This document shows, one piece after another, positions 8,501 through 26,304 of a stretch of 64,000 nucleotides of DNA. Below the pieces are notes generated by a model. It ran no database searches. It was given only the letters and a program-made list of their open reading frames with translations, and was not told the origin of the DNA. Origin of the DNA: Solirubrobacterales bacterium (lineage in GTDB: Bacteria > Actinomycetota > Thermoleophilia > Solirubrobacterales > JBBDJG01); assembly GCA_038203635.1 (NCBI GenBank), contig JBBRDT010000001.1:22003-86002 (forward strand). Reading direction: 5' to 3'. The position numbers and the translations under genes are program-made. How positions within the stretch are numbered: the stretch's first letter is position 1; the number at the start of each line of letters is the position of its first letter.

Positions 8501-10821
8501 CAACGTTCGTCTCCGCCACGCCCTCACAGGGCGGCTGCTCGGAGACGGCCGGCACGGTCACCTGCGCGCTCGACACGATCGCCGACCAAGGCAGCGCGAC
8601 GGTCGAGATCAAGGTCACGCCACGCGAGGGTGAAGTGATCACGAACGACGCGACCGTTTCCTCCGACGAGGGTGACCCGACCCCCTCGAACAACTCGGAC
8701 AGCGCCGACACGACCGTGAGCCCGGCCGCCGACCTCGAGCTGACCAAGACGGACTCGCCCGACCCGATTCCGGCGGGCGGACTGCTCACCTACACACTCG
8801 CCGTCCACAACGCCGGCCCTTCGAGCGCACCCGCCGTCCAGCTTTCCGACACCCTGCCGGCCGGCGTGACCTTCGTCTCCGCTGAGCCGACGCAGGGCAC
8901 CTGCAGCCAGGCAGCGGGCATCGTGGACTGCGCGCTCGGCACCATCGCCGACCAGGCAACAGCGAACGTCGCGATCAAGGTCAGGCCGCAGGCCCCCGGC
9001 ACGATCACGAACGTCGCCAGCGTCCTCTCCCTCGCGCTCGATGCCGACACGGCTGACAACAACGCGAGCGCCGAGACGACCGTCGGTCAGGCCGCCGACC
9101 TGTCGCTGACCAAGACCGGCTCGCCGGACCCGGTGCTGCCGGGAGCGCAGCTGACCTACATGCTCACGGTGCACAACGCCGGTCCCGAGACCGCCACGGT
9201 GGTGAGCTTGACCGACACCCTGCCGGGTGGCGTGACCTTCGACTCCGCGACCCCGTCGCAGGGCACCTGCTCCGAGTCGAGCGGCACAGTCACCTGCGCG
9301 CTCGGCACACTCGCCGACGAGGGCGGCGCAAGCGTCGAGATCGACGTCACCCCACAGAGCCCCGGGACGATCACGAACCAGGCGAGCGTGTCGTCGGAGG
9401 TGGACGATCCCGAGCCCGCCGACAACTCCGCAAGCGCGGTGACCACGGTGTCTCCGGTCGCAGACCTCTCGGTCTCGAAGTCCGATGCGCCCGACCCGAT
9501 CCTGGTCGAGGAGCTATTGACCTACTCCCTGTCGGTTGAGAACTCCGGGCCGTCCAGCGCCACCGGCACGAGCTTGACCGACACCCTGCCGGCCGGCGTG
9601 ACCTTCGAGTCGGCCACGTCGACGCAGGGCACCTGCTCGGAGTCGAGCGGCACGGTCACCTGCGCGCTCGGCTCTCTCGCCAACGGCGCAATTGTGGATG
9701 TCGAGATCAAGGTGAGGCCGCAGACAGCCGGCGACATCACCAACCAGGCGGACGTGACCTCGGACGAGCATGACCCGGCTTCGGGGAACAACTCCGCCAG
9801 CGCCACGACGACCGTGAACAGGATCGCCAACCTTTCGCTCACCAAGTCCGACTCGCCCGACCCGGCGGTGGTGAACGAGCAGGTCACGTACACGCTCTCG
9901 GTCCAGAACTCCGGTCCCTCGAACGCCACCGGCGTGAGCCTCACGGACACCTTGCCGGGTGGCGTCACGTTCGAGTCGGCCACCCCGACTCAGGGAAGCT
10001 GCACACAGGCCGCCGGCACCGTCAGCTGCGCCCTCGGCACCATCGCGAACGGCGCGGACGCGACCGTGACGGTCCGCATCAGGCCACAGAGCGCGGGCTC
10101 GATCACCAACAACGCACAAGTGAGCTCCGGCGCCACGGACCCGAGTACGGGTGACAACACTGCGAGCGCACAGACGACGGTCAACCCGGCCATCGGGTAC
10201 ACACGCCCGAAGACCGCCACGAAAGTGCGCGTTCCGCTCGTCCCGGCCTATGTGGCGTGCGCAGGGCCCAATGGCTTCCACGGTCCCCCGCTCGGCAGTG
10301 CTTCCTGCAAGCCTCCGACCAGAGTCTCGACATTCGTGACCATCGGGTCCCCGGACGCCAACGGGGCCACGGCGAATTCTTCGGGCTCGGCGCGATTCAA
10401 GGTGATGCTCAACGACCTGAGCATCACCGCAAACATCACGGACATCCGGTGCGGCAACGGGACCAGCGCCTGCGGCGCCGCCAACGCCCAGGACGGCCCC
10501 GACTACTCGGGCCAGCTCCAGCTCGCCCTGCCGCTGCGTATCACCGACAGGTTCAGCGGCTCGGCCGGCGGGGTGGCGGCGACCGTTTCGGACACGTCCT
10601 TCCCGGTGCCGATGGCCTGCTCCGAGGTCGCAAACCAAGCGATCGGCTCCACCTGCAGCGTCACCACCTCCGCCAATGCGGTGCTCCCGGGCGCGATCCA
10701 GACTGGCAGGCGCACCGTCTGGCAGATGGATCGGGTGCAGGTGTTCGACGGAGGCGCGGACGGCGTCGCCTCGACCGCCGGGAACGGGCTCTTCGCAGTG
10801 CAGGGCGTGTTCGTGCCGTAG
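2542..10821 (+). CDS. giant secreted protein: purple-acid-phosphatase-type metallophosphoesterase + 17 DUF11 repeats + ~205-aa Cys-containing C-terminal domain
   Basis: Signal peptide MQGRVLGVATLVAVAALALLPSGASG. PAP motif set GDWG / GDNAY / GNHDY / FWHYP / GHSHNY. Then 17 tandem ~121-aa repeats of the DUF11 type (ADLxLTKTDSPDPV..LTYTLxVxNxGPSxA..TDTLPxGVTFxSAxPxQGxC..VTCxLGT..ITNxAxV..NNxASAxTTVxP). Start is either TTG 2542 or ATG 2557 (GAGG 9 nt upstream). Confidence 0.9.
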   Translation: MRRCRMQGRVLGVATLVAVAALALLPSGASGVYDAKLKRYPYLTDLVGTSVMVNFGTDISSTSALVKYGPVGNCTANTVTATRTFILVNGVSEYQWKGQISGLAANTQYCYRIFFGSAQLDLLGTDASPIFTTQIAAGSNSPFKFAVFGDWGKVGATGNPDQANVLAQIAASGSRFAVTTGDNAYETGSQKDYGDLYQTGANTSAVFGPSFWKVAGASLPLFAAPGNHDYNNSTILTNWPQDTAASTSGGRYQTDTYCCQNGTTSADYPSTWYAFDAGQARFYVLNTAWDDTNAGTTTAFKNDFDNHWGPNSPQYQWLANDLATHPKALRFAFWHYPLNSDSSEGGPDTYLQGANSLEGLLKTYDVTASFNGHSHNYQRNTAPPGGIPAHITGGGGANLESIGSTNGCGAQDAYGIGWSNTANVGSRCGAAPTPATKDRVHHFLLVSVSGTSVTVTPTDELGRTFDPITYNAPALNANLSLTNTDAPDPVLVGQQVTYTLTVGNAGPRAATGTVVTDTLPAGMIFDSATPSQGTCSQSGVTVTCQLGTVGNGATPTIQIKGRPQSTGTINNSATVASNVNDPTTSNNSASASTVVNPAADLAVTKTGSPDPIAVGTQLTYTVGVSNAGPSSATGITLTDTLPAGVTYNSATPTQGSCSQASGTVTCSLGTLANAASASVSIKVTPQAEGSITNQANVVSLTGDPNTANNGASAVTTVNPAADLALTKTDSPDPVLVGQQLTYTLTTQNAGPSGAAAVQLTDTLPAGVTFVSAVPSQGTCSQSAGVVTCSLGTIANAANASVSIKVTPQSTGSITNQASVTSSVTDPNSANNTASAATLVNPVADMVVTKTDSPDPVLVGQPLTYTVGVQNSGPSSATSVSMTDTLPGGVTFNSAVPSQGSCSQAAGVVTCPLGTIASGAGASIQITVTPQSTGSITNQASASSSVSDPNSANNTASAATLVNPAANLSLTKTDSPDPVLQRQELTYSLGVSNAGPSSATSVVVTDTLPSGVTYNSATPSQGSCANSSGTVTCSLGTIANGASATIQIKITPPSTGSITNSASATSGVSDPTPANNSASASTLVNPVADLSITKSDSPDPVSSGQQLTYTLALQNSGPSGATGVTVTDTLPGGVTYNSATPSQGTCSQSSGTVTCNLGAVANGANASVSIVVTPTGGTTITNQASVSAATADPALVNNASSASTTVDPIADLSLTNSDAPDPVLSGNELTYTLGVHNSGPASAPSASLSDTFPAGVTYVSATTTQGSCARSGNTVICALGTLSSGADVTVTIKVNTGAPGTITNDATVLSTATDPSSGNNSASAVTTVKPVADLALTKSDAPDPVLAGQLLTYTLGVSNGGPQDAPGVTVTDTLPAGVTFESATPTQGSCTQLAGTVTCALGTVANSGSASVDVKVRPQSEGSITNQASVTSGAGDLNPSNDSASAQTTVDPAADLELTKTDSADPVYSGDELTYTLAVHNAGPSATSGVALSDTLPAGATYVSFTASQGSCFRSGSSVLCSLGTLANQANATVTIKVIAQAVGTLTNTANVFGMNADTDTADNAASADTTVNPSANLSLTKSDSPDPVAAGELLTYSLGVQNAGPQAATGVTVTDTLPAGVLFESATASQGDCTESSGTVTCALGTVANAGSASVEIKVRPQEGGQITNQATVDSDLEDQVPGNNSASAVTTVDPAADLSLTKTDSPDPVLAGELLTYTLAVHSAGPSSATAVQVTDNLPAGVTFDSADPTQGTCTESSGTVTCALGTLAGGADAGVEIKVRPQQGGSITNEASVSSAVQDPTSSNNSASAETTVVPAADLSLTKTDTPDPALEDEQLTYLLTVQNAGPQSATGVALTDNLPAGVTFDSATPSQGTCSESSGTVTCALGTIADEGSASVEIKVTPPDPATLTNEASVSSDLADPDSADTTASAETTVRPVADLALTKSDAPDPILAGEELTYTLTVDNSGPRSATSVQLTDTLPATATFVSATPSQGGCSETAGTVTCALDTIADQGSATVEIKVTPREGEVITNDATVSSDEGDPTPSNNSDSADTTVSPAADLELTKTDSPDPIPAGGLLTYTLAVHNAGPSSAPAVQLSDTLPAGVTFVSAEPTQGTCSQAAGIVDCALGTIADQATANVAIKVRPQAPGTITNVASVLSLALDADTADNNASAETTVGQAADLSLTKTGSPDPVLPGAQLTYMLTVHNAGPETATVVSLTDTLPGGVTFDSATPSQGTCSESSGTVTCALGTLADEGGASVEIDVTPQSPGTITNQASVSSEVDDPEPADNSASAVTTVSPVADLSVSKSDAPDPILVEELLTYSLSVENSGPSSATGTSLTDTLPAGVTFESATSTQGTCSESSGTVTCALGSLANGAIVDVEIKVRPQTAGDITNQADVTSDEHDPASGNNSASATTTVNRIANLSLTKSDSPDPAVVNEQVTYTLSVQNSGPSNATGVSLTDTLPGGVTFESATPTQGSCTQAAGTVSCALGTIANGADATVTVRIRPQSAGSITNNAQVSSGATDPSTGDNTASAQTTVNPAIGYTRPKTATKVRVPLVPAYVACAGPNGFHGPPLGSASCKPPTRVSTFVTIGSPDANGATANSSGSARFKVMLNDLSITANITDIRCGNGTSACGAANAQDGPDYSGQLQLALPLRITDRFSGSAGGVAATVSDTSFPVPMACSEVANQAIGSTCSVTTSANAVLPGAIQTGRRTVWQMDRVQVFDGGADGVASTAGNGLFAVQGVFVP
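3961..10189 (+). repeat. coding tandem array, 17 units of ~363-366 nt (DUF11 repeats)
   Basis: The ADL(S/A/E)LTK(T/S)D(S/A)PDP repeat-unit start motif recurs 17 times in the translation. Many units share long identical DNA strings such as tcgcccgacccggtgctggtcggccagcag. Confidence 0.9.
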
Positions 10822-14466: not shown

Positions 14467-15026
14467 TCGAGGAGATCTCACCTCCGCGCCCCGAGTCGGC
14501 GGACTTCCAGACGCCGGACCTGATCGAGCCGGTCGTGGCCTTTCGCAGCTGGCGATTGGTCGACGGCGCGCTGCGATCCGTCTATCTACCTGTCTTCTGG
14601 ACCGAGAGAGAGGTCGAGGCCACGTGCATGGGCTCCGAGGCACCCGGTACCCACTCCCCCCGGTCCGCTCCCCCCGGTCACGAGGCGCCGGACCGCGGAT
14701 GCACCTGCGGCATCTACGCGTACTACGAGCCCGACAGGAACTTTCCCACCGTCGACCACCGCGGCGTGATCGGGATCGTGAGCCTCTGGGGCACGATCGA
14801 GCTGCACGATGACGGCATGCGCGCACAGCACGCACGCGTCGAGGCGCTGGCGCTCTACTCGCGCTGGACCACGCGGCACATCGAGGCGGTGCGTGAGGTG
14901 GCACGCGAGCTGGGCGTCGACCTGGTCGACCTCGACGAGATCGAGGATGCGGCCCGCCGCTACGGACGGCACATCAGCCGCGAGCTCGTACCCGGCGCCG
15001 GGCGCGAGCCGCAGACGGCCCGCTAA
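14463..15026 (+). CDS. hypothetical protein with C..H..CxC (CTCGIYAYY) putative zinc site
   Basis: ATG 14463 (MIEEISPP...). Conserved-looking core SWRL..G.L.S..W..ATC..GHEAPDRGCTCGIYAYY..IVSLWGTIELHDDGMRAQHARV. High GC3. Confidence 0.55.
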   Translation: MIEEISPPRPESADFQTPDLIEPVVAFRSWRLVDGALRSVYLPVFWTEREVEATCMGSEAPGTHSPRSAPPGHEAPDRGCTCGIYAYYEPDRNFPTVDHRGVIGIVSLWGTIELHDDGMRAQHARVEALALYSRWTTRHIEAVREVARELGVDLVDLDEIEDAARRYGRHISRELVPGAGREPQTAR

Positions 15027-15149: not shown

Positions 15150-17468
15150 TTAGCGGCGACGGACCTTGAAGGTCCTGGTGACGAGTCCGCGGCCGCTGCC
15201 CTTGGACGCATACACCGTGAGCTTGTAGAAGCCGGGCAGCTCGAGGGCGGCGACGTGCAGGTATGCCGTCCCGAGCGTGTTCGTCTTACGCTCCCGCCAC
15301 CGCACCGGCGTCTTGCCGTCTCGCGAGAAGATCTGGAAGAAGAGGTGGCTCTGCGCTGCCGGCGCCCCCGAGCGCTTGAGCTTCGCACGCACCTTGACCG
15401 GCAGCTCGGATCCCACCTGCACGGCCTTGGGCATGTCCAGCGTGACGGAAAGCGGGCCACGGTCCGCCACCGGCGCTGTGCGGCGGCGGCTCGGCTCCCT
15501 TCCCGCTCCCGCCCGGCGGCGGGCCCTCCTGTTGCGCAGGTTCGGCTCGAGGCCGACGGAGGACGCGTAGTTGCCGAAGTTGTCGGTCGCTACCAGCCAG
15601 TACCGGCGCTGAACGTAGTAGGGCGCCACGATCCGGGCGGTGAACGAGCCGTCCTTGTCAGCTTTGTACGTTCCCCGGCTTGCCTGGTGGTAGTACAGGG
15701 TCACGCGAGAGTTGAACCGGAACCCGCGGCCCTTCACGGTCATCCGGTGGGTGCCGCGCCTGAAGGTGATGTGAGGCCGCGCAAGCAGCTTCGTAACCTT
15801 GTAGATCCAGGCCCGTGCCTCGTGGTTGCGGTACACGACGTGCTCCAGGCGCCCGCCGTAGGCTTCGATGAAGCGCCTGAAACGCTCCTGGTGCGACGAG
15901 TCCACGAGGGGGTTCTCCGGTGGGTCGTCGCCCTCGTCGGTGTAATAGACGAGGTAGGAGACCTCGCGACTCCTGACCAGCCGCGGAGGCCAATAGTTGA
16001 CCCAGTCACGTGACGGGCCGTCGGCGGCGGGGTGCGGACTGCGAACGACGCCTCCCGGAAAGATCGTTGCGAGCCGGAACCGGCCGAAGGGATAGGCGTC
16101 ACGATGCGCATAGAACGAGATGGCGTACTGCGCGGAGCCCTTGGAGAGCGTCATCACGCCGTCTTCCGGCTTCGTGTTCGTCTTCAGCCACTTCGCCGCT
16201 TCACGCAGCCCGAAGTACGAGTCCGTGCGCGCCACGTCGACGACCGGTGATGCCATCACCACCGCCGAGCAGAGGCCGGCAAGCAATGCCACCGGCAGCG
16301 CGATCGGCTGTGAGGCGCGCGCCAGCCATCCGACCCTGGGCCGCTGCCCCATCCGCCTCCACCGGTGCGCGATCGCCAGCACGAGGTCGTGCACCGCGCG
16401 CCCCGCCAGGATCGACAGCGGGGGAATGATCGGCAGCAGGTAGTTGAACGCCTTCAGGGGATAGGCCTGGAAGAACAGGGCCACGACGAACACCCAGAAG
16501 AGGAGCAGCCGGTCGCCCGCGCTCCATCGGCGCAACGCGATCGCGATGCCGGCGAGCCAGATCACGGGTGTCACGTAGCCGTCGAAGGCGACGAGCTTTT
16601 CGAGGTAGTAGTACCAGGGGACCTGCGTGGCACGCTGGCCGCTGTCCCCGAGGAACTCGAGCAGCTGGTCCGACTTCAGCGCGATCTGCACCATGACCGG
16701 GATGAAGAACGCGACGAACGCTGCCGAGGCGAGCAGGAAACTGCGCAGGTTCAGGCGCCGCAGCTCTCTGGAGACCAGCAGGTAGTTCAGCGCGATCACC
16801 ACGATCAGCACGCCCGTGACCTTGGCCTGGATCGTCAGCGCCGTGCAGGCCGCGAACCCGTACAACCACGCGTCGCGGCTCGTCGTGATCCATTTCGCAA
16901 AGCAGAACAGGGCCAGCGAGAACAGGAACACGAGCGACGAGTCGAGCAGCGCCAGCCTGCCGAGCAGCACGGAGTAGCCGCTGAGCGCTACGAAGAGTGC
17001 GGCCAGCAGGCCCACGTTGCGCCCATACAGCGTCTTTCCGATGCCGAAGCAGACGAGCACCGTGCCGACGCTGAAGCTGATCGCGACCAGACGGGCAATG
17101 ACGTCGGAGACCCCGAACAGCAGATAGAAGAACGCGACGACCTGCTGGTAGAACAGGAAGTTCGAGTTCCCGCGCGATGCGAGCACGAAGTAGCGGTCGA
17201 GCTGATCGTCGCCGGAGAGCACGGCCGCCTGGCCTGCGTAGACCGCTTCGTCTCCCCGGAGCCCGACGTCTGTGATCGCCCACAGTCGCGGCAGAGCGGC
17301 GATCACGAGAATCGCCCCGAGCATCAGCCTGCCGCGATGACGCCAGAGGAAATGCGTGGTCCGAGCGGCCATGGATTCGAGGGGGCGCCGGCTGCGGCCA
17401 GCCCGGAACAGGGACTCCGCCTCGGAGTCTCGGAGCAGGTGGACGACCGGTCGGAAAGGCGCCTTCAA
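15150..17468 (-). CDS. GT-C glycosyltransferase (family 39 PMT/ArnT-like) with C-terminal extracytoplasmic beta-rich domains
   Basis: About 11 TM helices, with the first-loop DE motif (LRGDEAVYAGQA) typical of PMT_2/ArnT enzymes. About 330-aa soluble tail. Start is TTG 17468 or ATG 17372. Confidence 0.8.
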   Translation of the reverse strand: MKAPFRPVVHLLRDSEAESLFRAGRSRRPLESMAARTTHFLWRHRGRLMLGAILVIAALPRLWAITDVGLRGDEAVYAGQAAVLSGDDQLDRYFVLASRGNSNFLFYQQVVAFFYLLFGVSDVIARLVAISFSVGTVLVCFGIGKTLYGRNVGLLAALFVALSGYSVLLGRLALLDSSLVFLFSLALFCFAKWITTSRDAWLYGFAACTALTIQAKVTGVLIVVIALNYLLVSRELRRLNLRSFLLASAAFVAFFIPVMVQIALKSDQLLEFLGDSGQRATQVPWYYYLEKLVAFDGYVTPVIWLAGIAIALRRWSAGDRLLLFWVFVVALFFQAYPLKAFNYLLPIIPPLSILAGRAVHDLVLAIAHRWRRMGQRPRVGWLARASQPIALPVALLAGLCSAVVMASPVVDVARTDSYFGLREAAKWLKTNTKPEDGVMTLSKGSAQYAISFYAHRDAYPFGRFRLATIFPGGVVRSPHPAADGPSRDWVNYWPPRLVRSREVSYLVYYTDEGDDPPENPLVDSSHQERFRRFIEAYGGRLEHVVYRNHEARAWIYKVTKLLARPHITFRRGTHRMTVKGRGFRFNSRVTLYYHQASRGTYKADKDGSFTARIVAPYYVQRRYWLVATDNFGNYASSVGLEPNLRNRRARRRAGAGREPSRRRTAPVADRGPLSVTLDMPKAVQVGSELPVKVRAKLKRSGAPAAQSHLFFQIFSRDGKTPVRWRERKTNTLGTAYLHVAALELPGFYKLTVYASKGSGRGLVTRTFKVRRR

Positions 17469-17475
17469 CTCGCGG

Positions 17476-19863
17476 CTAGGAGACGGGGCTGCCCATGACC
17501 GCCGGCAATTTCTGCCACCAGTCCATGGTGCTGCTGGCGATCAGAGTCGCCGGGACGCTGCCAAAGGCGCGGGTCACGATGTCGCGCTCCGCGGCCTTCA
17601 GGTCGTGCCCGCTCATCCCCTGCAGGAACTCCTCGATCCTGGAGTAAGGCGGGAAGCCGAAGGCGTCCTCGCAGTTCTCCCTCAGGATCTCGAGCGCCTC
17701 CTCGGTATCCATCTGGATCTGGTAGTCGCCGTCGCGCTGGATGATCACCAGCCCGGCAATCTGAGCCTCGGGAGCGACCCGGGCAGTCGGGATCAGGCGG
17801 TCGATGTCGTACTTGGGCGGTGGAATCAGCCTCTGGACGACCGCGTTGAGCGTCGCCGCCGGGATCCGCATCGCGGCCAGCACCATCGCGAACCGGCGGC
17901 CCGACCGGGAATGAAGGCGGCTCTGTGGAACCAGCTTCACCCGCTCACGCCTCGACAGCAGCGGCGTCTTGACGGCATGCACCGTGTGCCGGCTGATCGT
18001 CAGCGGCTTCGGATACGCCAGCACGCGGCCGTCCGGGCACACGATCGTGAGGTCATCGGAAAGGAACGAGTACGGGAAGTGGTCGAGCAGCTTCAGTGTC
18101 GTGGTCGTCTTGCCGGTGTCGGTGCGGGCGGTGACCATGAACCCCTGATCGCCGTCGGCGAAGCACGCGGCGTGCACGAGCGCGTATCCCTTGCTGGCGA
18201 ACGTCCAGCGCAGGATCGGCTCGACGACGTTGGTGTACAGCACGTGCGGAGAGCGCTGCAAAAGCGGCGCCGCCAGCACCTCGATGCGCTCGCCCAGGTG
18301 AGAGATTTCGCACCCGAAGCCGAAGCCGCCGACACCCTCCGAGTAGCGGAGCGTACGCGGCTTGACGGGACCCAGCTCCGGGAATTCGGCCGTGATGTCC
18401 GAGTCGTGGTGCCCGTTGCCGTTTCCGTTGCCGTTGACGTGTCCGTTTCCGTTGACGTGTCCGTTGCCGTTCGCGTGTCCGTTGCCGTTGCCGTTGGGTG
18501 TCACGTTCCCGTTGCTCTCGGGGCGACCGCGCATGTGGCCGATCCGGACGCGGATCGTCGGGCGGCTGAGAGCCTCCGTCACGAGGAACCGGTGCAGCTC
18601 CGGCAGCCGCACCTCGGACGTGACCGTGACGATGCCGTGGATGTCGTAACTGAACGAGCCCACGTCCCGGCGCTGGGCCTTGGCCCAGATCCACGCATCG
18701 GCGACGCCGAACCGGATGATGGTGAGCGCGACCAGCGAAAGGATGTTCGACGCCAGGTAGTGCATCCCCAGACCGGTCGTCAGCACGAACAGCAGCGGCA
18801 CCCGCAGCACAAGCGCGGCGTTGTTCATGGCGAAGAACATCGCCGCACGACGCCCGCGTGTTCGCTCGTGCTCGCGACCGGCGAACACCCAGCCTTCCGT
18901 GAAGCAGAAGTTCCACAGGGTGGAGCCCTGGGTCGCGAGGATCGCGGCGGCCACGTAGTACAGCCCGGCCACGTCCGCGAACAGCGCCAGCAGCAGGGTG
19001 TTGACGGCCAGGCCCGTGGCCCCCACCACGGTGAAGCGGCCGAACCGCGCCGTCAGCTGACCCAGCTGCAACCGGCCCAGCTGGCCCACGTACCGCAGCG
19101 CCTCGCGCACGGACGCCTTGGTCTCGCCGGCGTGGCGCTCGCCGAACCCGAACGGCACCTCGGACACGGTCAATCCGGGTGTCCGGACGAGGATCTCGAG
19201 CAGGATCTTGAAACCCCGTGGCCGCAGCCGATCGAGGTCGACGGCCTCCCGCCGGACCACGAAGCAACCGCTCATCGGGTCGCTCACGTGCCACAGGCTC
19301 TTCGGGAAGAGCAGCATCGCCGCCCGCGTGGAGACGCTTGACAGGGCCGAGCGCAGCCGCCCGAACGCACCTTTGTCCCCTCCCGCGCAGAACCGGCTCG
19401 CGACCACCAGGTCCGACGCCGTTCCGAGCGCCTCCAGGTACATCTCCTCGAGTATCTCCGGGGGATGCTGCAGGTCGGCGTCCATGACGCACACGAACGG
19501 CGCCCGCGCCTGCCGCATCCCGGCGACCACGGCGCCTCCCAGCCCGCCCTGGCGATCGCCCAGCGGGCGATGGATGAGGTAGACGGCGCGCGAGGACTCG
19601 ATCGCCCGGATCGCGTCCGGGGTGTCGTCGTCGCTGTCGTCGACGAAGATGACCTCCACCGGCAGGTCCGGCAGCACGCGGTCGAGCCGCGAAACTAGCG
19701 GTCCCACGTTCCCTGCCTCGGCCCTGGTCGGGACGATCACCGAGACCGCCGGCGTGGTTCCGTTCAGGCTGCGGCCGGCCGCCAATACGGCGTCCGCAGC
19801 GCCCTTAGAGATGACTCCGTTCTCGCGCGACCGAGCGGCGCGCGACCTGAATGCAATGTTCAA
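17476..19863 (-). CDS. fusion protein: GT2 polyprenol-phosphate glycosyltransferase + GtrA-like TM domain + N/G/H repeat linker + HprK-like P-loop domain
   Basis: GT2 core VSVIVPTRAEAGNVGPL..VIFVDDSDDDTPD..VMDADLQHPP. GtrA-like region RFGRFTVVGATGLAVNTLLL..WNFCFTEGWVF. Linker NGNGNGHANGNGHVNGNGHVNGNGNGNGHH. C-terminal segment LVHAACFADGDQGFMVTARTDTGKTTTTLKLL..FLSDDL resembles HPr-kinase-C-type P-loop proteins. Confidence 0.8.
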   Translation of the reverse strand: MNIAFRSRAARSRENGVISKGAADAVLAAGRSLNGTTPAVSVIVPTRAEAGNVGPLVSRLDRVLPDLPVEVIFVDDSDDDTPDAIRAIESSRAVYLIHRPLGDRQGGLGGAVVAGMRQARAPFVCVMDADLQHPPEILEEMYLEALGTASDLVVASRFCAGGDKGAFGRLRSALSSVSTRAAMLLFPKSLWHVSDPMSGCFVVRREAVDLDRLRPRGFKILLEILVRTPGLTVSEVPFGFGERHAGETKASVREALRYVGQLGRLQLGQLTARFGRFTVVGATGLAVNTLLLALFADVAGLYYVAAAILATQGSTLWNFCFTEGWVFAGREHERTRGRRAAMFFAMNNAALVLRVPLLFVLTTGLGMHYLASNILSLVALTIIRFGVADAWIWAKAQRRDVGSFSYDIHGIVTVTSEVRLPELHRFLVTEALSRPTIRVRIGHMRGRPESNGNVTPNGNGNGHANGNGHVNGNGHVNGNGNGNGHHDSDITAEFPELGPVKPRTLRYSEGVGGFGFGCEISHLGERIEVLAAPLLQRSPHVLYTNVVEPILRWTFASKGYALVHAACFADGDQGFMVTARTDTGKTTTTLKLLDHFPYSFLSDDLTIVCPDGRVLAYPKPLTISRHTVHAVKTPLLSRRERVKLVPQSRLHSRSGRRFAMVLAAMRIPAATLNAVVQRLIPPPKYDIDRLIPTARVAPEAQIAGLVIIQRDGDYQIQMDTEEALEILRENCEDAFGFPPYSRIEEFLQGMSGHDLKAAERDIVTRAFGSVPATLIASSTMDWWQKLPAVMGSPVS
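18406..18516 (-). repeat. coding microsatellite-like repeat (GTT GCC/GTT GAC GTG TCC units) encoding (NG)n/(NGH) linker
   Basis: Plus strand reads ccgttgccgtttccgttgccgttgacgtgtccgtttccgttgacgtgtccgttgccgttcgcgtgtccgttgccgttgccgtt. Confidence 0.85.
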
Positions 19864-20172
19864 GGTCCGCTAACCCGCCGTATCGCCAGGCTCGACGGAG
19901 TGCCTCCCATGACGCTCCGCGCGGCCCGCCTTCCCTGCCGAATCCACCTGCATGTCCGTGCCTCCATCCGTAAAGCAGGCGCAACATAACGCACCTTGCT
20001 CCGGAAACACAAGGGGGTGCTGCAACTTTGTACCGGCGGTCCTACAACCAGCCGCGCTTGCTATCGGCCCCACCGGTGGGTTAGGTTTCACCACAACGGG
20101 ACGTTGCCGGGGCAGCCGGTGCAGTCGCCGCAGGAATGCTTGGAGTCAGGATGGCCGGAGGCGCGGCAAGGA

Positions 20173-23100
20173 ATGCATAAACGGAGGGGGATCGCGTGCG
20201 TCGCGATCGTTGGCGCGCTGTTCGCCCACTTCGGCGCAGCCGGTGCGTCTGCTGCCGACCCGGTGATCGCGGCGGCCGGCGACATCGCCTGCAGCTCCTC
20301 GAGCTCCAACTACAACGGCGGCAACGGGGTGTCCGACCGCTGCCGGCAGAAGTACACGTCCAACCTGATCTTCAACGCAGGCCTCTCGGCGGTCCTCGTG
20401 CTGGGCGACATGCAGTACGAGAGCGCCAGCCTGTCGGGCATCAATAGCTCCTACAACCCGACCTGGGGCCGGGTGAAGTCGATCACCCGCCCGGCGCTTG
20501 GGAACCACGAGTACAAGACGGCCAACGCGGCGGGCTACTTCGACTACTTCAACGGCAGCGGCGCCGCCACGGGCCCGGCCGGCGAGCGCGGCAAGGGCTA
20601 CTACAGCTTCGACGTCGGCACCTGGCATTTGATCGCGCTCAACTCGAGCGACCACTGCACGATCGTGTCGTGCGCGGCCGCCTCGGCACAGGAGGTCTGG
20701 CTGAAGGCCGACCTTGCGGCCAACTCGTCGAAGTACTGCACGCTCGCCTTTTGGCACGACCCGCGCTTCAACTCGGGCCACGACGGCAACGCCGACGAGA
20801 TGAAGCCGCTTTTCCAGGCTCTCTACGACGCGAACGCCGACCTCATGCTCGGCGGGCACGCACACAGCTACGAGCGCTTCGCGCCTCAGAATCCGGCCGG
20901 CGGGCTTGACAATGCGCGCGGCATCCGCCAGTTCGTGGTGGGCACGGGCGGCGCATTCTGGACGAGCATCGGCACGCCGAAGCCCAACAGCGAAGTGCGT
21001 CAAAACAGCACGTACGGCGTGCTGAAACTGACTCTCAGACCCACGGGCTACGACTATCAGTTCGCCCCCGAGGCGGGCAAGACGTTCACCGACTCCGGCA
21101 CGGGCACGTGCCATGGCGGCACGCCGCCCCCGACCGACACGATCAAGCCCTCGATCCCCGGCAACGTGCGCGCCACCGCGGGCACGGGTCAGGTCTCGCT
21201 GCTCTGGAACCAGTCCACGGACAACGTGGGCGTCACGGGGTACCAGGTGTTCCGGGGCGCGACGCAGGTCGCGACGCTCGGCTCGGTCACCTCGTACACC
21301 GACCCCAACCTCGCGCCGGGCACCTACAGCTACACGGTGCGCGCAGTGGACGGCGCGGGCAACGTCTCCGACGCCAGCGCTGCGGCAAGCGCGACGGTCG
21401 CGGACACCACCAAGCCGACGCCGCCGACGCTCACGGCCACGGCGAGCGCGGGACAGGTCGCCCTCAGCTGGCAGGGGGCCACCGACAACGTTGGAGTGAC
21501 CGGGTACCAGCTGTACCGGGGAGCCACGCAGATCGCCACTCTGGGAGGCGCCGTCACGTCGTACACCGACGCAAATCTCGCGGCAGGCGGCTACAGCTAC
21601 ACCGTGCGCGCCGTCGACGCCGCGGGCCTCTCCTCGGACGCCAGCAACACTGCCAGCGCGACCGTGCCCGACACGACCAAGCCGACGACCCCCACCCTGT
21701 CAGCGACCGGCAGCGCGGGGCAGGTCGCGCTGAGCTGGACGGTGTCCACCGACAACGTCGCAGTCACGGGATACGAGGTGTTCCGCGGCTCGGTGCGGAT
21801 CGCGGTCCTCGGCCCCTCCGCCAACTCCTATGCCGACACCGGCCTCTCGCCCGGCACCTACTTCTACGCCGTGCGGTCCTTCGACGCGGCCAACAACTTC
21901 TCGATTTCGAGCAACACCGCGAGCGGGACCGTGCCCGACGGGCTGAAGCCGAGCGCCCCGGGCAACCTGACCGCCTCCGCGCCGACGTCGGCCGCGGTCG
22001 ACCTGAGCTGGGTGGCTTCGACCGACAACGTGGGCGTGACCGGCTACAGGGTCTACCGCGACGGTGCACTGATCGCCAGCCCGGGGGCGGCGGCCACCTC
22101 CTACAGCGACTCGGCTGTCTCCGCGACCGTCACCTATCACTACGTCGTGCGCGCGATCGACGCCGCAGGCAACCTCTCCGACCCCAGCAGCGACGTGCCC
22201 GTGACGGTGCCCGACACCGTCAAGCCCAGCGCTCCGGGGAACCTCCACACGACCGCGGTGACCTCCAGCCAGGTGGACCTCGCCTGGAACGCGTCTACCG
22301 ACAACGTCGCCGTGACCGGCTACCGCGTGTTCCGCAATGACGTGCCGATCGCGGACGTGAGCGCCGCGACCCTGTCTTACTCGGACGGCCCGATCACCCC
22401 GGGCACCTACCGCTACACCGTGCGCGCGGTCGACGGTGCCGGGAACGTCTCGGACGCGAGCACCGAGGTGACGGCCACGGTGCCCGACACGGAGAAGCCC
22501 ACGACCCCCCAGAACCTCGACGCCACCGCCCGAGGCGCTTTCCAGGTCGACCTCACGTGGGACGCATCCACCGACAACGTCGGCGTGGCCAGCTACCTGA
22601 TCTACCGCAACGACGTGCACATCGACACGGTTAGCGGCACGGACACCTCGTACACGGACAACGTGCTCGCCCCGGACCTCTACACGTACTACGTGCGCGC
22701 GGTGGACGACGCGGGGAACCTCTCCGACCCCAGCAACACCGACTCCGCGACTGTCGTCCCGCCGGACGATGAGCTTCCAACGGTGCCGGGCAACCTGACG
22801 GCCGCCTTGAACGGGACGGACCGGGTCGACCTGAACTGGGAGGAGTCGAGCGACAACGTCCTCGTCACCGGGTACCGGATCTACCGCAACGACGAGCTGA
22901 TCAAGACGATCGGCCCGGGATCGTCTTGGTCCGACACCGGGGTCCCCGCGCGTGACCACGAATACCGCGTGCGGGCCGAGGACGCCGCCGGCAACCTTTC
23001 CGACCCGAGCAACCCGGCGGGCGTGATCGTGCCCGACACTGCGCCCCCGTCACCTCCGGGCAACCTCACCGCGAGCGCGCCGGACGGAGGCCCCGTGCTG

Positions 23101-25347
23101 CTCGAGTGGGAGGCCGCGGACGACAACGTCGGGGTCGCCGGATATGAGGTCTACAGGGACGGTGCGTTCATCGCCTCGATCGATCCGGGCACCTCCTACT
23201 CCGACCCGGTCGGCGCAGGGACCTACGCGTACCACCTCAAGGCGATGGATCCGACGGGGAACATGTCGCAGGCGAGCAACACCGCAAACGTGACCGAGCT
23301 CGCGCCGGACACGGAGGACCCCGGTCCGCCGGCAAACCTCCAGGCGCAGGTCGCGGCCGGAAAGGTCGACCTCCTTTGGGACGCCGCCACGGACAACAGG
23401 GCGGTGACGCAATACGAGATCCGCCGCGACGGCGCGGTCGTCGCAACGATCGGGGCCGCCTCGACGTCGTGGTCCGACAGCAACGTCACGGCGCCGGTCA
23501 CGTACGAGTACGACGTACGCGCGCTCGACGCGGCGGCGAACGTGTCGCTGCCCAGCAACACCGCGAGCGCGACGGTGCCCGACACGCAGAAGCCGACGCC
23601 GCCCACGAACCTGACCGCGAACGCCACCGCGAGCCAGGTCGACCTCACGTGGGGTGCGGCGGGCGACGACGTGGCGGTTACGCAATACAGGATCTATCGC
23701 GATGGTGCGGCGATCGCGACGATCGGCCCGGGAACCTCGTGGTCCGACAGCAGTGTCACGGCTCCCGGCTACGAGTATGAGGTGCGGGCGCTCGACGCGG
23801 CCGACAACCTCTCCGACCCCAGCAACAAGGTCACCGCCACCGTGCTCGATGCCCAGAAGCCCACTGCGCCCGGGACCCTGACGGCTACCGCCGCCGGGCC
23901 GAACCAGGTCAACCTCACCTGGACGGCATCAGGCGACAACATCGGCGTGACGGGCTACCGCGTCTACCGTGACACGGCGCCGATCGCGACCATCGGAGCG
24001 GTCACCACCTTCTCTGACACGGGCGTTGCCGGCAGCACCACCTATGCGTACGAGGTCCGCGCCCTGGATGCCGCCGGCAACGTCTCCGATCCGAGCAACA
24101 CCGCCCCGGCGACCACGCCGGCCGCCTCCGCCGTGTTCAACTTCTCACCGGAGGCCGATGCCCGTACCCAGGCCTCGGCGGCCACCACCAACTACGCAAC
24201 GAGCTTCCTGCGGGTCGACGGCGGTACCGACCCGGCCGTGGAGAGCCTGCTGCGGTTCACGGTCACCGGCGCGCCGGCAGGATCAATCCGAAGCGCCAAG
24301 CTGCGCGTGTACGCCTACAGTGGAACCGTGGACGGACCGGCAGTCTTCACCACCAATCCCGCCTGGAACGAGCAGGCGATCAACTGGAACAACCGCCCAC
24401 CGCGCACCAGCGCGACCACCGATGACAAGGGCGCGATCGCGACCAACAGCTGGGTCGAGTACGACGTCACCTCCTTCGTCACGAGCAACGGCACCTACAG
24501 CTTCGGGCTGGCCGGCACCTCCACCGACGGCGTCGACATCTACTCAAAGGAATCCGCGACCCTGCGACCGGAGCTCGTGGTGACGACCGGCGCCCCGGAC
24601 ACGCAGAAGCCCACGCCGCCACCCACCCTCGCCGCGACCGTCATGACCGCGTCGCGGGTCGATCTCTCCTGGCAGCCCGCGGGCGACAACGTCGGGGTGA
24701 CCGGCTACCAGGTCCTGCGCAACGGCAACCAGATCGCGAGCCTCGGGGTGACGACGGCGTACTCCGACACGTCCGTCGCGGCGAACACTTCCTACACCTA
24801 CCAGGTCCGCGCGGTGGACGCCGCCGGCAACGTCTCGGACCCCAGCAACTCCGCGCCGGCCGCGACACCGCCGGTGGCGACGGTGCTGACCCTCTCCCCC
24901 GAGGCGGACGCCCGTACCCAGGAGGCGAACCCGACCACCAACTACGGGACCGCCTACCTGCGCGTGAACGGCGGCTCCGAGCTGGACGTCGAGACCCTCG
25001 TGCGCTTCACCGTGACCGGAGCCCCGGCGGGAAGCGTGGCGAGCGCCAAGCTGCGCCTCTACAACTACAACGGCACCGCGGACGGCCCGGCTCTTTACCC
25101 GACCGTCACATCCTGGAACGAGACCGCGGTCAGCTGGAACACGCGACCGGCCCGCACGAGTGGTACCCCGACGGACGACAAGGGCGCGATCGCGAAAAAC
25201 ACCTGGGTCGAGTACAACGTGACGCCTCTCGTGACCGGGAACGGCACGTACAGCTTCGCCCTGGCCACGACCTCCAGCGACGGCATCGACTTCTACAACC
25301 GCGAGGCGGCAACGCTGCGCCCCGAGCTCGTGGTGACGCTGCGCTAG
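20173..25347 (+). CDS. giant secreted protein: PAP-type metallophosphoesterase + 12 FN3 repeats + 2 DNRLRE-like beta-sandwich modules
   Basis: ATG 20173 gives the signal peptide MHKRRGIACVAIVGALFAHFGAAGASA|ADP. Motifs GDIAC / GDMQY / GNHEY / FWHDP / GHAHSYE. FN3 units read KP(S/T)xPxNLTAxAxxxxxVDLSWxASTDNVGVTGYRVYRDG...YxYxVRAxDAAGNxSDPS. Two ~150-aa modules carry NY(A/G)T..LRV..LxRFTV..AKLR(V/L)Y..W(N)E..(I/V)xWN(N/T)RP..RPELVVT. Confidence 0.9.
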   Translation: MHKRRGIACVAIVGALFAHFGAAGASAADPVIAAAGDIACSSSSSNYNGGNGVSDRCRQKYTSNLIFNAGLSAVLVLGDMQYESASLSGINSSYNPTWGRVKSITRPALGNHEYKTANAAGYFDYFNGSGAATGPAGERGKGYYSFDVGTWHLIALNSSDHCTIVSCAAASAQEVWLKADLAANSSKYCTLAFWHDPRFNSGHDGNADEMKPLFQALYDANADLMLGGHAHSYERFAPQNPAGGLDNARGIRQFVVGTGGAFWTSIGTPKPNSEVRQNSTYGVLKLTLRPTGYDYQFAPEAGKTFTDSGTGTCHGGTPPPTDTIKPSIPGNVRATAGTGQVSLLWNQSTDNVGVTGYQVFRGATQVATLGSVTSYTDPNLAPGTYSYTVRAVDGAGNVSDASAAASATVADTTKPTPPTLTATASAGQVALSWQGATDNVGVTGYQLYRGATQIATLGGAVTSYTDANLAAGGYSYTVRAVDAAGLSSDASNTASATVPDTTKPTTPTLSATGSAGQVALSWTVSTDNVAVTGYEVFRGSVRIAVLGPSANSYADTGLSPGTYFYAVRSFDAANNFSISSNTASGTVPDGLKPSAPGNLTASAPTSAAVDLSWVASTDNVGVTGYRVYRDGALIASPGAAATSYSDSAVSATVTYHYVVRAIDAAGNLSDPSSDVPVTVPDTVKPSAPGNLHTTAVTSSQVDLAWNASTDNVAVTGYRVFRNDVPIADVSAATLSYSDGPITPGTYRYTVRAVDGAGNVSDASTEVTATVPDTEKPTTPQNLDATARGAFQVDLTWDASTDNVGVASYLIYRNDVHIDTVSGTDTSYTDNVLAPDLYTYYVRAVDDAGNLSDPSNTDSATVVPPDDELPTVPGNLTAALNGTDRVDLNWEESSDNVLVTGYRIYRNDELIKTIGPGSSWSDTGVPARDHEYRVRAEDAAGNLSDPSNPAGVIVPDTAPPSPPGNLTASAPDGGPVLLEWEAADDNVGVAGYEVYRDGAFIASIDPGTSYSDPVGAGTYAYHLKAMDPTGNMSQASNTANVTELAPDTEDPGPPANLQAQVAAGKVDLLWDAATDNRAVTQYEIRRDGAVVATIGAASTSWSDSNVTAPVTYEYDVRALDAAANVSLPSNTASATVPDTQKPTPPTNLTANATASQVDLTWGAAGDDVAVTQYRIYRDGAAIATIGPGTSWSDSSVTAPGYEYEVRALDAADNLSDPSNKVTATVLDAQKPTAPGTLTATAAGPNQVNLTWTASGDNIGVTGYRVYRDTAPIATIGAVTTFSDTGVAGSTTYAYEVRALDAAGNVSDPSNTAPATTPAASAVFNFSPEADARTQASAATTNYATSFLRVDGGTDPAVESLLRFTVTGAPAGSIRSAKLRVYAYSGTVDGPAVFTTNPAWNEQAINWNNRPPRTSATTDDKGAIATNSWVEYDVTSFVTSNGTYSFGLAGTSTDGVDIYSKESATLRPELVVTTGAPDTQKPTPPPTLAATVMTASRVDLSWQPAGDNVGVTGYQVLRNGNQIASLGVTTAYSDTSVAANTSYTYQVRAVDAAGNVSDPSNSAPAATPPVATVLTLSPEADARTQEANPTTNYGTAYLRVNGGSELDVETLVRFTVTGAPAGSVASAKLRLYNYNGTADGPALYPTVTSWNETAVSWNTRPARTSGTPTDDKGAIAKNTWVEYNVTPLVTGNGTYSFALATTSSDGIDFYNREAATLRPELVVTLR
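21142..24120 (+). repeat. coding tandem array of 11 FN3 units (~280 nt each); a 12th unit lies at ~24601..24870
   Basis: WxxSTDNVGVTGY(R/Q/E)V(Y/F)R recurs in each unit. Confidence 0.85.
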
Positions 25348-25349
25348 CC

Positions 25350-26300
25350 ATGCGCCTCCTCCCGAACAAGAGAAGGCTGCTGATCGGCGCCATCGCGGCC
25401 GCGATCGTCCTGTCATCCGTCGCTCTCGTGCTGGGCGTGGCCGACTCGGCGTCGCCGCCCGAGTCCGGCCCGAAGGTCGACACGCACGTCGACCACTCAT
25501 ACATCTACACGGTCGACGTTGCCAGCGGACAGCTCGCCCAGGAGACCAATATGCAGGGCGAGGGAGCGCTGGAGCCTTCCTGGTCCGCCCAGGGCGACAT
25601 CGTCTTCAGCACCATGGACTGCGACGAGTGCTCCTCGAGCCTCTCCGAGGTGGACCCCGATGCCCCCATCTCCGTCGAGGCACCGATCGACACGACCGTC
25701 GAGCACGTGTTCCAGCCGTCCTGGGCGCCCGACGGTAAGCAGGTCGCAACGGTGGCACTCGGCCGCGGCATCTACGTCGTCGACTCGCAGACCGGCACGG
25801 CGAAGCGGCTGACGTCCGGCCGGTCGGACGAGGCGCCGGACTGGGCCGCCAGCGGAGACTGGATCGCGTTCCACCGGCAGGTGAGCGGCAGCAACTACGA
25901 CATCTTCGCCGTCAACGCCACCACGAAGGCGGAGCGCAGGCTCACGAACGACAACCGGCAACAGACGAATCCCACCTGGTCGCCGGACGGCAGTCAGGTG
26001 GCTTACGCCGAGCAGCGCTCCAACGGGAAGTGGGCGATCGTCACGATGAACGCCGACGGCACGGGTCGCAAGCGCGTGACGACCGCGGGCATCAGCGCCC
26101 AGGAGCCCACCTGGTCGCCCGATGGCACGAGCATCGCATTCATCTTGCAGGAGCTGGACAAGGCTACGATCGCGGTGATTCCCGCGAGCGGGGGCTCGCC
26201 GAAGCGCCTGACGGACCAGAAGATATTTCCCGCAAAGCCGACCTGGTCGCCGGACAGCAAGACCATTGCGTTCGCCGCGACCGTGGTTCAAACGAATTGA
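25350..26300 (+). CDS. membrane-anchored PD40/TolB-like beta-propeller protein
   Basis: N-terminal anchor LLIGAIAAAIVLSSVALVLG. At least six PD40 signatures (PSWSAQGDIVF, PSWAPDGKQVA, APDWAASGDWIAF, NPTWSPDGSQVAY, EPTWSPDGTSIAF, KPTWSPDSKTIAF). Starts 2 nt after the upstream stop. Confidence 0.8.
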   Translation: MRLLPNKRRLLIGAIAAAIVLSSVALVLGVADSASPPESGPKVDTHVDHSYIYTVDVASGQLAQETNMQGEGALEPSWSAQGDIVFSTMDCDECSSSLSEVDPDAPISVEAPIDTTVEHVFQPSWAPDGKQVATVALGRGIYVVDSQTGTAKRLTSGRSDEAPDWAASGDWIAFHRQVSGSNYDIFAVNATTKAERRLTNDNRQQTNPTWSPDGSQVAYAEQRSNGKWAIVTMNADGTGRKRVTTAGISAQEPTWSPDGTSIAFILQELDKATIAVIPASGGSPKRLTDQKIFPAKPTWSPDSKTIAFAATVVQTN

Positions 26301-26304
26301 GGCA

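Follow-up and report, generated by a model that had tools for sequence, protein, structure and literature searches.

The locus described here lies at positions 15150 to 19863 of a 64,000-nucleotide stretch of DNA from a Solirubrobacterales bacterium (assembly GCA_038203635.1, contig JBBRDT010000001.1, positions 22,003 to 86,002 of the forward strand), which is referred to as a whole as the window. It is filled by two minus-strand open reading frames (ORFs) encoding 795 and 772 amino acids (aa), with a G+C content of 66-73% (Table 1). The upstream gene encodes a single chain in which a glycosyltransferase family 2 (GT2) synthase and a domain of four transmembrane (TM) helices are followed by a module with the fold of HPr kinase/phosphorylase (HprK/P) and phosphoenolpyruvate carboxykinase (PEPCK); the downstream gene encodes a GT-C glycosyltransferase. 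An original prediction, made by a model from the letters and translations of this DNA, had proposed an operon of a polyprenyl-phosphate-sugar synthase and a GT-C transferase, and Pfam and the conserved starts support it. Since the closest relatives share the N-terminal sequence of each protein from codon 1 onwards, the upstream TTG starts of both genes and the 7-nt gap between them are real, and the synthase and GT-C genes form an operon in which they are translationally linked. The start codon of the GT-C gene is ATG in one close relative (L006; L numbers denote fetched loci) and GTG or TTG in the others. An exact database look-up of the fusion protein returned no record.

According to Pfam, the fusion protein contains a Glycos_transf_2 domain at aa 41-208 (E = 3e-21) and a GtrA_DPMS_TM domain at aa 276-393 (E = 3e-17). 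In a phmmer comparison with the PDB, aa 37-393 align end to end with the dolichyl-phosphate-mannose synthase (DPMS) of Pyrococcus furiosus (PfDPMS; PDB 5mlz, residues 22-372 of 374; E = 1.9e-50), and the catalytic stretch VMDADLQHPPE, which holds the DAD motif, is identical in the two proteins. By this alignment the synthase is a full-length homologue of the archaeal enzyme. A GT2 domain with the DAD motif and a C-terminal four-TM GtrA-like domain in one chain constitute the ordinary type-III DPMS architecture (PMC5526996); what had been described as a GT2 enzyme with an added GtrA flippase is therefore an ordinary single-chain synthase of this type. Dolichyl-phosphate-mannose (Dol-P-Man) is reported to be bound head-down in a polar pocket of this TM domain, which is proposed to flip the product (PMC12992685). 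Of the PfDPMS pocket residues, as read off the pairwise alignment, Asn248 and Arg341 are kept and the gate residue Phe338 is replaced by Thr. Strict type-III DPMS has been considered restricted to (hyperthermophilic) archaea (PMC12992685), and given that claim a close full-length homologue in bacteria, where the family has hundreds of members, is noteworthy. A separate NTP_transf_3 domain, matched in 8 of 50 relatives, was rejected as a GT-A-fold cross-match: the only match whose position was seen (homologue P0130) lies inside GT2.

The GT-C protein is matched by Pfam PMT_2 (E = 2.6e-12, 47.7 bits) and PMT (E = 6.9e-12, 45.9 bits, cut-off 22.7), both at aa 106-263. Membership of GT39 is not established, because PMT_2 scores as well as PMT, and no solved structure in the PDB is detectable by sequence. 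GT-C enzymes are expected to have an Asp-Glu pair following the first TM helix as their catalytic motif, and here this pair is invariant in the orthologues (75/75) within the pattern '[NR][SG]DEAVYAGQA'. A GT2 synthase, a GtrA-type TM module and a GT-C enzyme with an acidic first-loop motif are co-encoded at the locus, and the GT-C gene lies directly downstream of, or adjoins, the module gene in all 57 loci with enough flanking sequence.

The module itself starts about 10 residues past the last TM helix and is about 390 aa long (from ~aa 403), rather than the ~330 aa of the original prediction. It is predicted to be cytoplasmic, as it is preceded by an even number of TM helices and, in Acidimicrobiia, directly follows GT2 with no TM helix in between. 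The Asn/Gly/His-rich (N/G/H) stretch lies between two conserved blocks, YDIHGI..V.S..RLPELERFRV...IRVRIG (aa 405-445) on its N-terminal side and IRYxEG.G..GFG on its C-terminal side (alignment A3). This stretch joins an N-terminal beta sub-domain to the core, and most homologues have 10-20 aa there. An AlphaFold2 (AF2) model of the module has a pLDDT of 84.9 overall, with 96-98 in the N-terminal strands, below 50 at aa 449-493 and above 90 in most of the core; a core-only model reaches 90.3. The N/G/H stretch, earlier taken for an inter-domain linker, is thus on the alignment and the model a predicted disordered, variable loop within one module. Asn/Gly/His-rich inserts have arisen repeatedly at the same loop in different lineages (homologues P0004, P0014, P0016, P0021, P0065 and P0070).

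The HprK-like character of the C-terminal domain was predicted correctly, as NCBIfam, Pfam on relatives, hhalign and Foldseek searches with AF2 models each confirm. The NCBIfam model HprK_rel_A (TIGR04352, HprK-related kinase A) matches weakly and at aa 551-631 only (E = 6.6e-4). Pfam Hpr_kinase_C (PF07475) matches 5 of 50 family representatives weakly, with a best E of 2.7e-6; the only bit score shown for the five, that of P0190, is 23.5 bits, under the cut-off of 33.3 bits. Of the domains expected beforehand, Glycos_transf_2, GtrA_DPMS_TM and PMT_2 were thus found in the two proteins, but Hpr_kinase_C was not matched by the window module. Comparison of the module with the PDB, by single sequence and by profile, gave nothing significant; only fold and profile-profile comparison worked. 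With hhalign, the family alignment matches Lactobacillus casei HprK/P (its sequence taken from a PDB alignment) at E = 1.7e-4 and pairs VH564AAC with MH140GVL, TARTDTGKTT with TGDSGVGKSE and FLSDD with LIADD, so that the His, the P-loop and the Asp pair stand in the same order and spacing as in HprK/P. The GK[ST] signature is in register, while the first glycines of the P-loop are replaced by Ala and Asp. In Foldseek searches of the PDB, the top 32 (model 1) and top 28 (model 2) matches are all HprK/P (1jb1, 1kkl, 1kkm, 2qmh, 1knx, 1ko7, 3tqf) or ATP-dependent PEPCK (2pc9, 6com, 1xkv, 2py7), with a best E of 3.5e-4 and probabilities of 0.9-1.0, after which the probability drops below 0.2. The PEPCK-like fold of the HprK C-terminal domain is therefore present. 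The N-terminal domain of HprK is absent, and the core is preceded by a beta sub-domain of ~45 aa attached to the TM domain. The module has the fold and motifs of HprK/PEPCK but falls outside HprK/P proper.

In the 'ADD' motif of HprK, the second Asp is the catalytic base. Across 50 diverse representatives of the family, at 31-56% identity, this residue (D604) is kept in 48 and its neighbor D603 in 49; H564 is kept in 46, D582 and G584 in 48 each, K585 in 45, T586 in 44 and K619 in all 50. Conservation of the catalytic residues in 44-49 of 50 sequences at this divergence favors an active phosphotransferase over a relic domain, and argues for an apparently active kinase of the HprK fold. The C-terminal module shares 93% identity with its counterpart in an uncultured Solirubrobacterales metagenome-assembled genome (L010), which makes this order (Thermoleophilia, Actinomycetota) the probable source of the window.

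The module is widespread. It has 1254 matches in a 90%-identity database and forms 982 representative clusters at 50% identity. Of the species-level genomes scanned, 395 carry it, and these belong to Solirubrobacterales, Thermoleophilaceae, Gaiellales, Acidimicrobiia, Thermomicrobiales, Chloroflexia and Dehalococcoidia (that is, Thermoleophilia, Acidimicrobiia and Chloroflexota). In their source records the homologues are labeled 'hypothetical protein', 'dolichol-phosphate mannosyltransferase', 'DPM synthase' or 'putative flippase GtrA'. Many of them carry a precomputed Pfam accession, PF27840.1, which is absent from the Pfam release used here; the domain may already have been catalogued by Pfam curators. 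No description of PF27840.1, of the HprK-like module (HprKL) or of a GT2-GtrA-HprK-like fusion was found in the literature, in agreement with the original prediction that the fusion had not been described.

Domain arrangements were tabulated over 80 fetched loci, in which GT2-GtrA-HprKL is the commonest form. In Thermomicrobiales and Chloroflexia, the module is a separate gene between synthase and GT-C. In Acidimicrobiia, it stands right after GT2, and the GtrA domain is separate or fused to GT-C. All four modules occur in one chain, GT2-GtrA-HprKL-GT-C, in L070 and P0169 (1310-1412 aa), and GtrA-HprKL-GT-C is found in P0170, P0193 and P0163. These fused, split and permuted forms are Rosetta-stone evidence for one four-module machine, and they also point to a cytoplasmic position of the module.

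Around the pair, as its core, lies a gene cluster that two phyla of soil bacteria have conserved and that consistently contains secreted enzymes cleaving phosphate esters. The common cluster is co-directional and runs from a LuxR-type regulator through synthase-HprKL, GT-C, a PF04185 phosphoesterase of the PLC/AcpA type (PLC; E = 2e-77 in L068, the locus of the culturable Thermalbibacter longus CFH 74404), U650 (a conserved core of ~290 aa without an assigned family) and a GH99/GH71-like protein (GH99-like) to a Metallophos exoprotein with Ig/fn3 domains (MPE). Among the 57 loci with at least 7.5 kb of downstream sequence, GT-C is present in 57, PLC in 48, U650 in 49, GH99-like in 47 and MPE in 50. 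A reverse scan of metagenomes anchored on U650, for which a three-sequence alignment was used after a first alignment had proved too diverse for a pattern, found the HprK-like module in all 7 loci whose upstream sequence was long enough. Only L045 was inspected for targeting signals; there, a signal peptide and a C-terminal TM anchor are present in each of PLC, U650 and GH99-like, which would therefore act at the outer face of the membrane. The three are separate genes in Chloroflexota. In Thermoleophilaceae, they form a single ORF of ~1070-1140 aa (e.g., L022:10513, 1074 aa), as seen in L007, L008, L012, L014-L017, L019, L022-L024, L026, L033 and L038. The nine loci without PLC are L074 and the eight of the clade to which the window belongs (L001-L006, L010 and L020). 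All eight members of this clade (8/8 loci) have the extension of GT-C and a large, divergent upstream MPE. PLC, U650 and GH99-like genes were looked for across the whole window and none was found. The window clade is a reduced form of the larger cluster, in which the Metallophos exoprotein is the sole remaining partner. The GT-C extension, presumably extracytoplasmic, has no Pfam family match and may be a functional replacement in this clade, which is without PLC, U650 and GH99-like; a replacement of U650 by homology was rejected, as the extension shows no similarity to U650.

In the window, the MPE is the giant fn3 protein divergently transcribed from the pair. Over aa ~128-446 it is similar to the cluster MPE of L045 (E = 7e-55), and its Metallophos region distantly matches a purple acid phosphatase in the PDB (E = 4.8e-6). 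The giant is the conserved MPE partner of the system. A link between pair and giant had been predicted from presumed O-glycosylation sites in linkers of the form PDT(T/Q)KPT(T/P)P. The link stands, and its basis has changed. Rather than long PT linkers, the strings are generic motifs of 8-10 aa at the boundaries (starts) of fn3 repeats; the fn3 domain of the L045 MPE begins with the same motif. A functional link of the giant to the pair would instead run through its N-terminal purple-acid-phosphatase-like domain, and it is backed by synteny: an MPE adjoins the pair in 50/57 loci, the full window clade included (8/8). Since this synteny is kept across gene rearrangement and two phyla, the predicted link survives the test, and the fusion searched for in other genomes has proved to have a recurrent neighbor in the Metallophos exoprotein.

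Table 1. Features of the locus and of the secreted proteins near it (window coordinates)
Feature	Position	Strand	Basis
Fusion gene, 795 aa: DPMS-like GT2, four-TM GtrA/DPMS domain, HprK/PEPCK-fold module	17476..19863	-	ORF, Pfam, N-terminus conservation
Type-III DPMS-like region, aa 37-393	18685..19755	-	phmmer vs PDB, Pfam
HprK/PEPCK-fold P-loop module, aa ~403-795, predicted cytoplasmic	17479..18657	-	AF2, Foldseek, hhalign, family alignments
N/G/H-rich low-complexity loop, aa ~449-493	18385..18519	-	Between IRVRIG and IRYxEG (alignment A3); pLDDT <50
Variant Walker A P-loop TARTDTGKTT, aa 578-587	18103..18132	-	Aligned to HprK GDSGVGKSE
DD pair, D603 and D604, equivalent to HprK 'ADD'	18052..18057	-	hhalign, FLSDD/LIADD
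GT-C glycosyltransferase, 772 aa, PMT_2/PMT type, ~11 TM helices	15150..17468	-	Pfam, hydropathy profile
DE motif, D73 and E74, first extracytoplasmic loop just past TM1	17247..17252	-	75/75 orthologues
GT-C C-terminal extension, ~300 aa	15153..16058	-	Clade-only: L001-L006, L010, L020
Divergent control region, 309 bp	19864..20172	none	Sequence and alignment A4; long invariant blocks common to relatives
fn3 giant (MPE): signal peptide, purple-acid-phosphatase-like Metallophos domain, ~12 fn3, two CBM96/DNRLRE	20173..25347	+	Pfam, NCBIfam
RTX-repeat protein with Metallophos-type N-terminal domain	26266..27789	+	E = 3e-104 to giant N-terminus; HemolysinCabind
DUF11-repeat giant, 2759 aa, purple-acid-phosphatase-like Metallophos start	2542..10821	+	

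Taken together, these results make it probable, at a moderate level of confidence, that the module is a catalytically active phosphotransferase and a subunit of a machine for glycosylation from lipid-linked sugars, functionally tied to the Metallophos exoprotein. The two genes would encode the cytoplasmic and extracytoplasmic halves of this machine. At the inner membrane face, the synthase most likely joins a hexose to polyprenyl phosphate, and this hexose is probably mannose; the four-TM domain probably presents or flips the product, and GT-C would pass the sugar to an acceptor outside the cell, which may be a protein, a lipid or a polymer. The module would be an ATP- or pyrophosphate (PPi)-dependent phosphotransferase in the cytoplasm and an obligatory subunit of the synthase/GT-C complex, and its kinase step would phosphorylate a hydroxyl at the cytoplasmic membrane face, controlling or feeding the flow of lipid-linked sugar. 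The target could be a Ser/Thr of the complex, as part of a switch sensitive to inorganic phosphate (Pi), PPi or ATP, or it could be the lipid carrier or the lipid-linked sugar; the two are judged about equally probable. HprK/P responds to Pi and PPi. The characterized HprK-type enzymes all phosphorylate Ser of a protein or peptide, and in one case the phosphate added by an HprK homologue to a peptide Ser is then glycosylated (PMC8498205). As for a switch on the complex, Roney and Rudner explicitly anticipate that carrier-lipid use may be controlled by phosphorylation (PMC11898649). Phosphorylation of the lipid or lipid-linked sugar would most directly explain the constant co-encoding of outer phosphoesterases. 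The remaining cluster members would work extracellularly, with phosphate esters and glycans as their targets and with the co-encoded phosphoesterases as glycosylated clients or as processors of the same glycoconjugate.

Several points weigh against this reading. The TIGR04352 score is 18.9 bits against an equivalog cut-off of 200, and the window module has no Pfam match at E<=1 and reaches no curated HprK threshold. The Foldseek TM-scores are low (0.2-0.5), because only a core of ~160 residues superposes. In the variant P-loop, AxTDTGKT, Gly of HprK is replaced by Ala and by an invariant Asp, and the nucleotide chemistry could therefore differ from that of HprK. The window clade is without PLC, U650 and GH99-like, so that models needing these proteins are not essential to the core pair, and synteny cannot separate clients of a pathway from its enzymes. 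The sugar is probably mannose, as read from the names of the families DPMS, PMT and GH99 only. Like the sugar, the catalytic activity, substrate and acceptor of the system are inferred, whereas its architecture, fold, motif conservation, synteny and fusions are shown.

The 'kinase- or NTP-gated' module of the original prediction is one of several live options for the role of this domain. It would fit a possible, if rather doubtful, alternative in which GT-C O-mannosylates the co-encoded exoproteins (the giant here; PLC, U650, GH99-like and MPE elsewhere) and the part of the module is confined to gating the synthase, for example in response to ATP, Pi or PPi, so that sugar supply follows phosphate status during phosphatase export. 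Actinobacterial Ppm1/Pmt do glycosylate secreted proteins, the P-loop of HprK/P binds Pi and PPi, and both Pfam PMT and PMT_2 match the GT-C; yet GT-C enzymes of the PMT_2 type modify lipids and polymers as well. The Metallophos exoprotein adjoins the pair across rearrangements (divergent in 8/8 loci of the clade, co-directional elsewhere), and in L045 both PLC and U650 have a mature N-terminus rich in Ser/Thr. However, it is hard to explain that four different enzymes, three of them fused in some lineages, should all be clients, the PDTxKPTxP strings are generic fn3 boundaries of 8-10 aa, and the conserved catalytic Asp pair suggests chemistry rather than sensing alone. That Asp pair, with the His, would suit phosphoryl transfer to any hydroxyl, and a tether of ~10 aa joins the module to the DPMS TM domain on its cytoplasmic side, at the lipid head-groups. 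A rather unlikely proposal is a phosphorylated lipid intermediate, in which the module would either re-phosphorylate free polyprenol, and thus feed the fused synthase, or phosphorylate the sugar of polyprenyl-phosphate-hexose, and the outer phosphoesterases and GH99-like protein would cleave, transfer or trim the resulting phospho-glycoconjugate at the outer face of the membrane. Two extracytoplasmic classes of phosphoesterase co-occur with the module (PLC in 48/57 loci, MPE in 50/57), and the PLC of L045 is membrane-anchored. Against the proposal stand the loss of the PLC-type enzyme in the window clade and the build of the giant MPE (~12 fn3 and CBM96), which looks made for reach away from the membrane; moreover, we know of no lipid kinase with a PEPCK fold. 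The characterized HprK-type enzymes, too, are all directed at Ser of a protein or peptide (PMC8498205). In favor of the proposal, metallophosphoesterases can act on carrier-lipid-linked glycans, as UpsH does (PMC11898649). A fuller version, in which the module would be the first lipid-face kinase of the HprK fold (acting on polyprenol or on the sugar of polyprenyl-phosphate-mannose) and GT-C, PLC, Metallophos and GH99-like proteins would build or remodel a phosphodiester-linked (phospho-mannosyl) surface glycoconjugate, is quite improbable. If true, it would mean that bacteria have an equivalent of the O-mannose kinase/matriglycan logic and that this is widespread among Thermoleophilia, Acidimicrobiia and Chloroflexota of soil.

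The remaining explanations leave the module without chemistry. It is very unlikely that it is degenerate and non-catalytic and only holds synthase and GT-C together or oligomerizes: HprK/P is oligomeric, the P-loop deviates from GxxGxGK and the window protein passes no curated HprK threshold, but relic domains usually lose exactly those catalytic residues (H564, D582, G584, K585, T586, D603, D604 and K619) that are kept here in 44-50 of the 50 representatives at 31-56% identity. Self-protection, in which the pair would decorate an envelope polymer or membrane lipid of the cell that contains phosphate and so shield it from the secreted phosphodiesterases and glycosidase that the cluster uses in scavenging, has a remoter claim and is highly improbable. 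Sugar substituents block teichoic-acid phosphodiesterases in Bacillus, and the glycosylation pair is strictly co-encoded with secreted hydrolases; the proposal is nevertheless pure analogy, no polymer-synthesis genes were seen in the cluster, and the kinase module would be left without a role.

The phosphotransferase-subunit reading sets the system beside several that are known. Like PfDPMS (PDB 5mlz), the synthase has GT2 and a four-TM GtrA-like domain in one chain and an identical DAD motif (PMC5526996; PMC12992685); unlike it, the protein is bacterial, with Thr at the Phe gate, an extra HprK-like module of ~390 aa and, as lipid, what would be a bacterial polyprenyl phosphate. The GtrB/GtrA/GtrC and CsbB/GtcA/YfhO systems likewise co-encode a GT2 synthase of polyprenyl-phosphate-sugar, a small GtrA-type TM protein and a GT-C enzyme, and in them the sugar is added outside the membrane (PMC5836110; PMC8035078). 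Here, in contrast, synthase and GtrA form one protein together with a kinase-like module, and the cluster also encodes phosphoesterases, U650 and a GH99-like protein. With HprK/P (PF07475) and the HprK homologues of lasso-peptide clusters, the module shares the fold core and the order and spacing of His, GK[ST] and DD, and the pseudomycoidin homologue adds a Ser phosphate that is then glycosylated (PMC8498205). The module differs in that it is without the HprK N-terminal domain, has the AxTDTGKT P-loop, an additional beta sub-domain and a helical insert, scores below threshold, and is membrane-tethered through its fusion to glycosyltransferases. Actinobacterial Ppm1 and Pmt (GT39) are similar in pairing a polyprenyl-phosphate-mannose synthase with a PMT-family GT-C enzyme that has DE in loop 1, and secreted targets are plausible in both cases. 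However, Ppm1 differs in type from PfDPMS and lacks a kinase domain, and the GT-C enzyme here has an equal PMT_2 score, an extension of 300 aa (in the window clade) and a place in a cluster with specific exoenzymes, rather than a general role. In the POMT/POMK system of alpha-dystroglycan, mannosylation by a GT-C enzyme using Dol-P-Man goes together with the action of a dedicated kinase and with phosphodiester chemistry on the glycan. This is an analogy only, since POMK has a protein-kinase fold, resides in the lumen of the endoplasmic reticulum and acts on protein-bound mannose, whereas the module here is predicted to be cytoplasmic and has an HprK fold.

The kind of system formed by GT2, GtrA and GT-C is thus known, and the kinase-fold module and the phosphoesterase/GH99 cluster are, as far as found, undescribed in the literature. 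Lipid-linked-sugar systems (GtrABC, CsbB/GtcA/YfhO, Ppm1/Pmt and DPMS/PMT) are thought to need no extra energy-coupled or phosphotransfer step once the lipid-P-sugar has been made. Here such a machine would have an apparently active kinase-fold module as an obligatory, variously fused part, firmly clustered with extracytoplasmic phosphoesterases. Hundreds of soil and thermophilic species that are poorly studied carry it, and the module is clearly under selection in a large family. Its substrate would reveal a new control point for carrier lipid or sugar supply, novel chemistry of phospho-glycans or a coupling of phosphate status to the glycosylation of envelope or exoproteins, and would assign a function to a large unannotated family (the 982 clusters above). 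The homology to PfDPMS would also place synthases of this type in bacteria.

The region between the pair and the giant is also conserved. The true start of the giant is ATG 20173, which is followed by a typical signal peptide (MHKRRGIACVAIVGALFAHFGAAGASA); the divergent region is therefore 309 bp long, close to the ~310 bp originally predicted. Invariant blocks, especially at ~19905-19990 and ~20140-20172, are kept in the alignment of L001, L003 and L010 and recur almost unchanged upstream in L006, in relatives whose module sequences are only 82-93% identical; one such block reads, in the GT2 sense, GCAAGnTGCGTTATGTTGCGnCTGCTTTACGGATGGAGGCACGGA. No Rfam family matched these blocks and no covariation was found, and a scan of the intergenic region with a tool limited to sigma-70-type promoters, which leaves other promoter types uncovered, found none. 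The blocks could be an operator or leader element. A candidate upstream ORF (uORF) of 27 codons at 19870-19953 on the minus strand (MQVDSAGKAGRAERHGRHSVEPGDTAG, then stop) is preceded by GGAGG and stops 6 nt ahead of the synthase TTG. uORFs of equal length, with conserved N- and C-terminal ends, occur in L001, L003, L006 and L010, and none was seen outside the clade; support for coding is weak, as just three changes are restricted to third positions.

Three genes separate the DUF11 giant from the pair: a PD40 gene, a GGDEF-HD gene and one gene of unknown function. The original prediction of secreted repeat proteins on both sides thus holds in that giants lie on either flank, but the DUF11 giant is three genes away. 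The last of the three (14244-15026, plus strand) is convergent to GT-C and has no significant family match; crude clustering groups it with ORFs in 11 other loci (family f6), and in L001 the f6 ORF likewise lies just 3' of GT-C on the opposite strand. The GGDEF and HD-GYP-type (HD_5) protein is encoded at 11916-14045 on the plus strand, between the PD40 gene of the DUF11 giant and the glycosylation pair, which suggests possible control of this surface-protein region by cyclic di-GMP. A nearby pair of histidine kinase and response regulator was considered as a regulator of the system, as in Chloroflexota loci, and rejected: its response regulator is of the OmpR type, not the LuxR type, and the similarity of the kinase is generic. 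On the far side of the fn3 giant, the N-terminal domain of the RTX-repeat protein is a paralogue of the catalytic domain of the giant. Three secreted proteins of the window, namely the DUF11 giant, the fn3/CBM96 giant (ORF 19996-25347) and the RTX protein, therefore begin with a purple-acid-phosphatase-like Metallophos domain, and a gene for a PD40 beta-propeller lies directly 3' of each giant (10875-11915 and 25350-26300).

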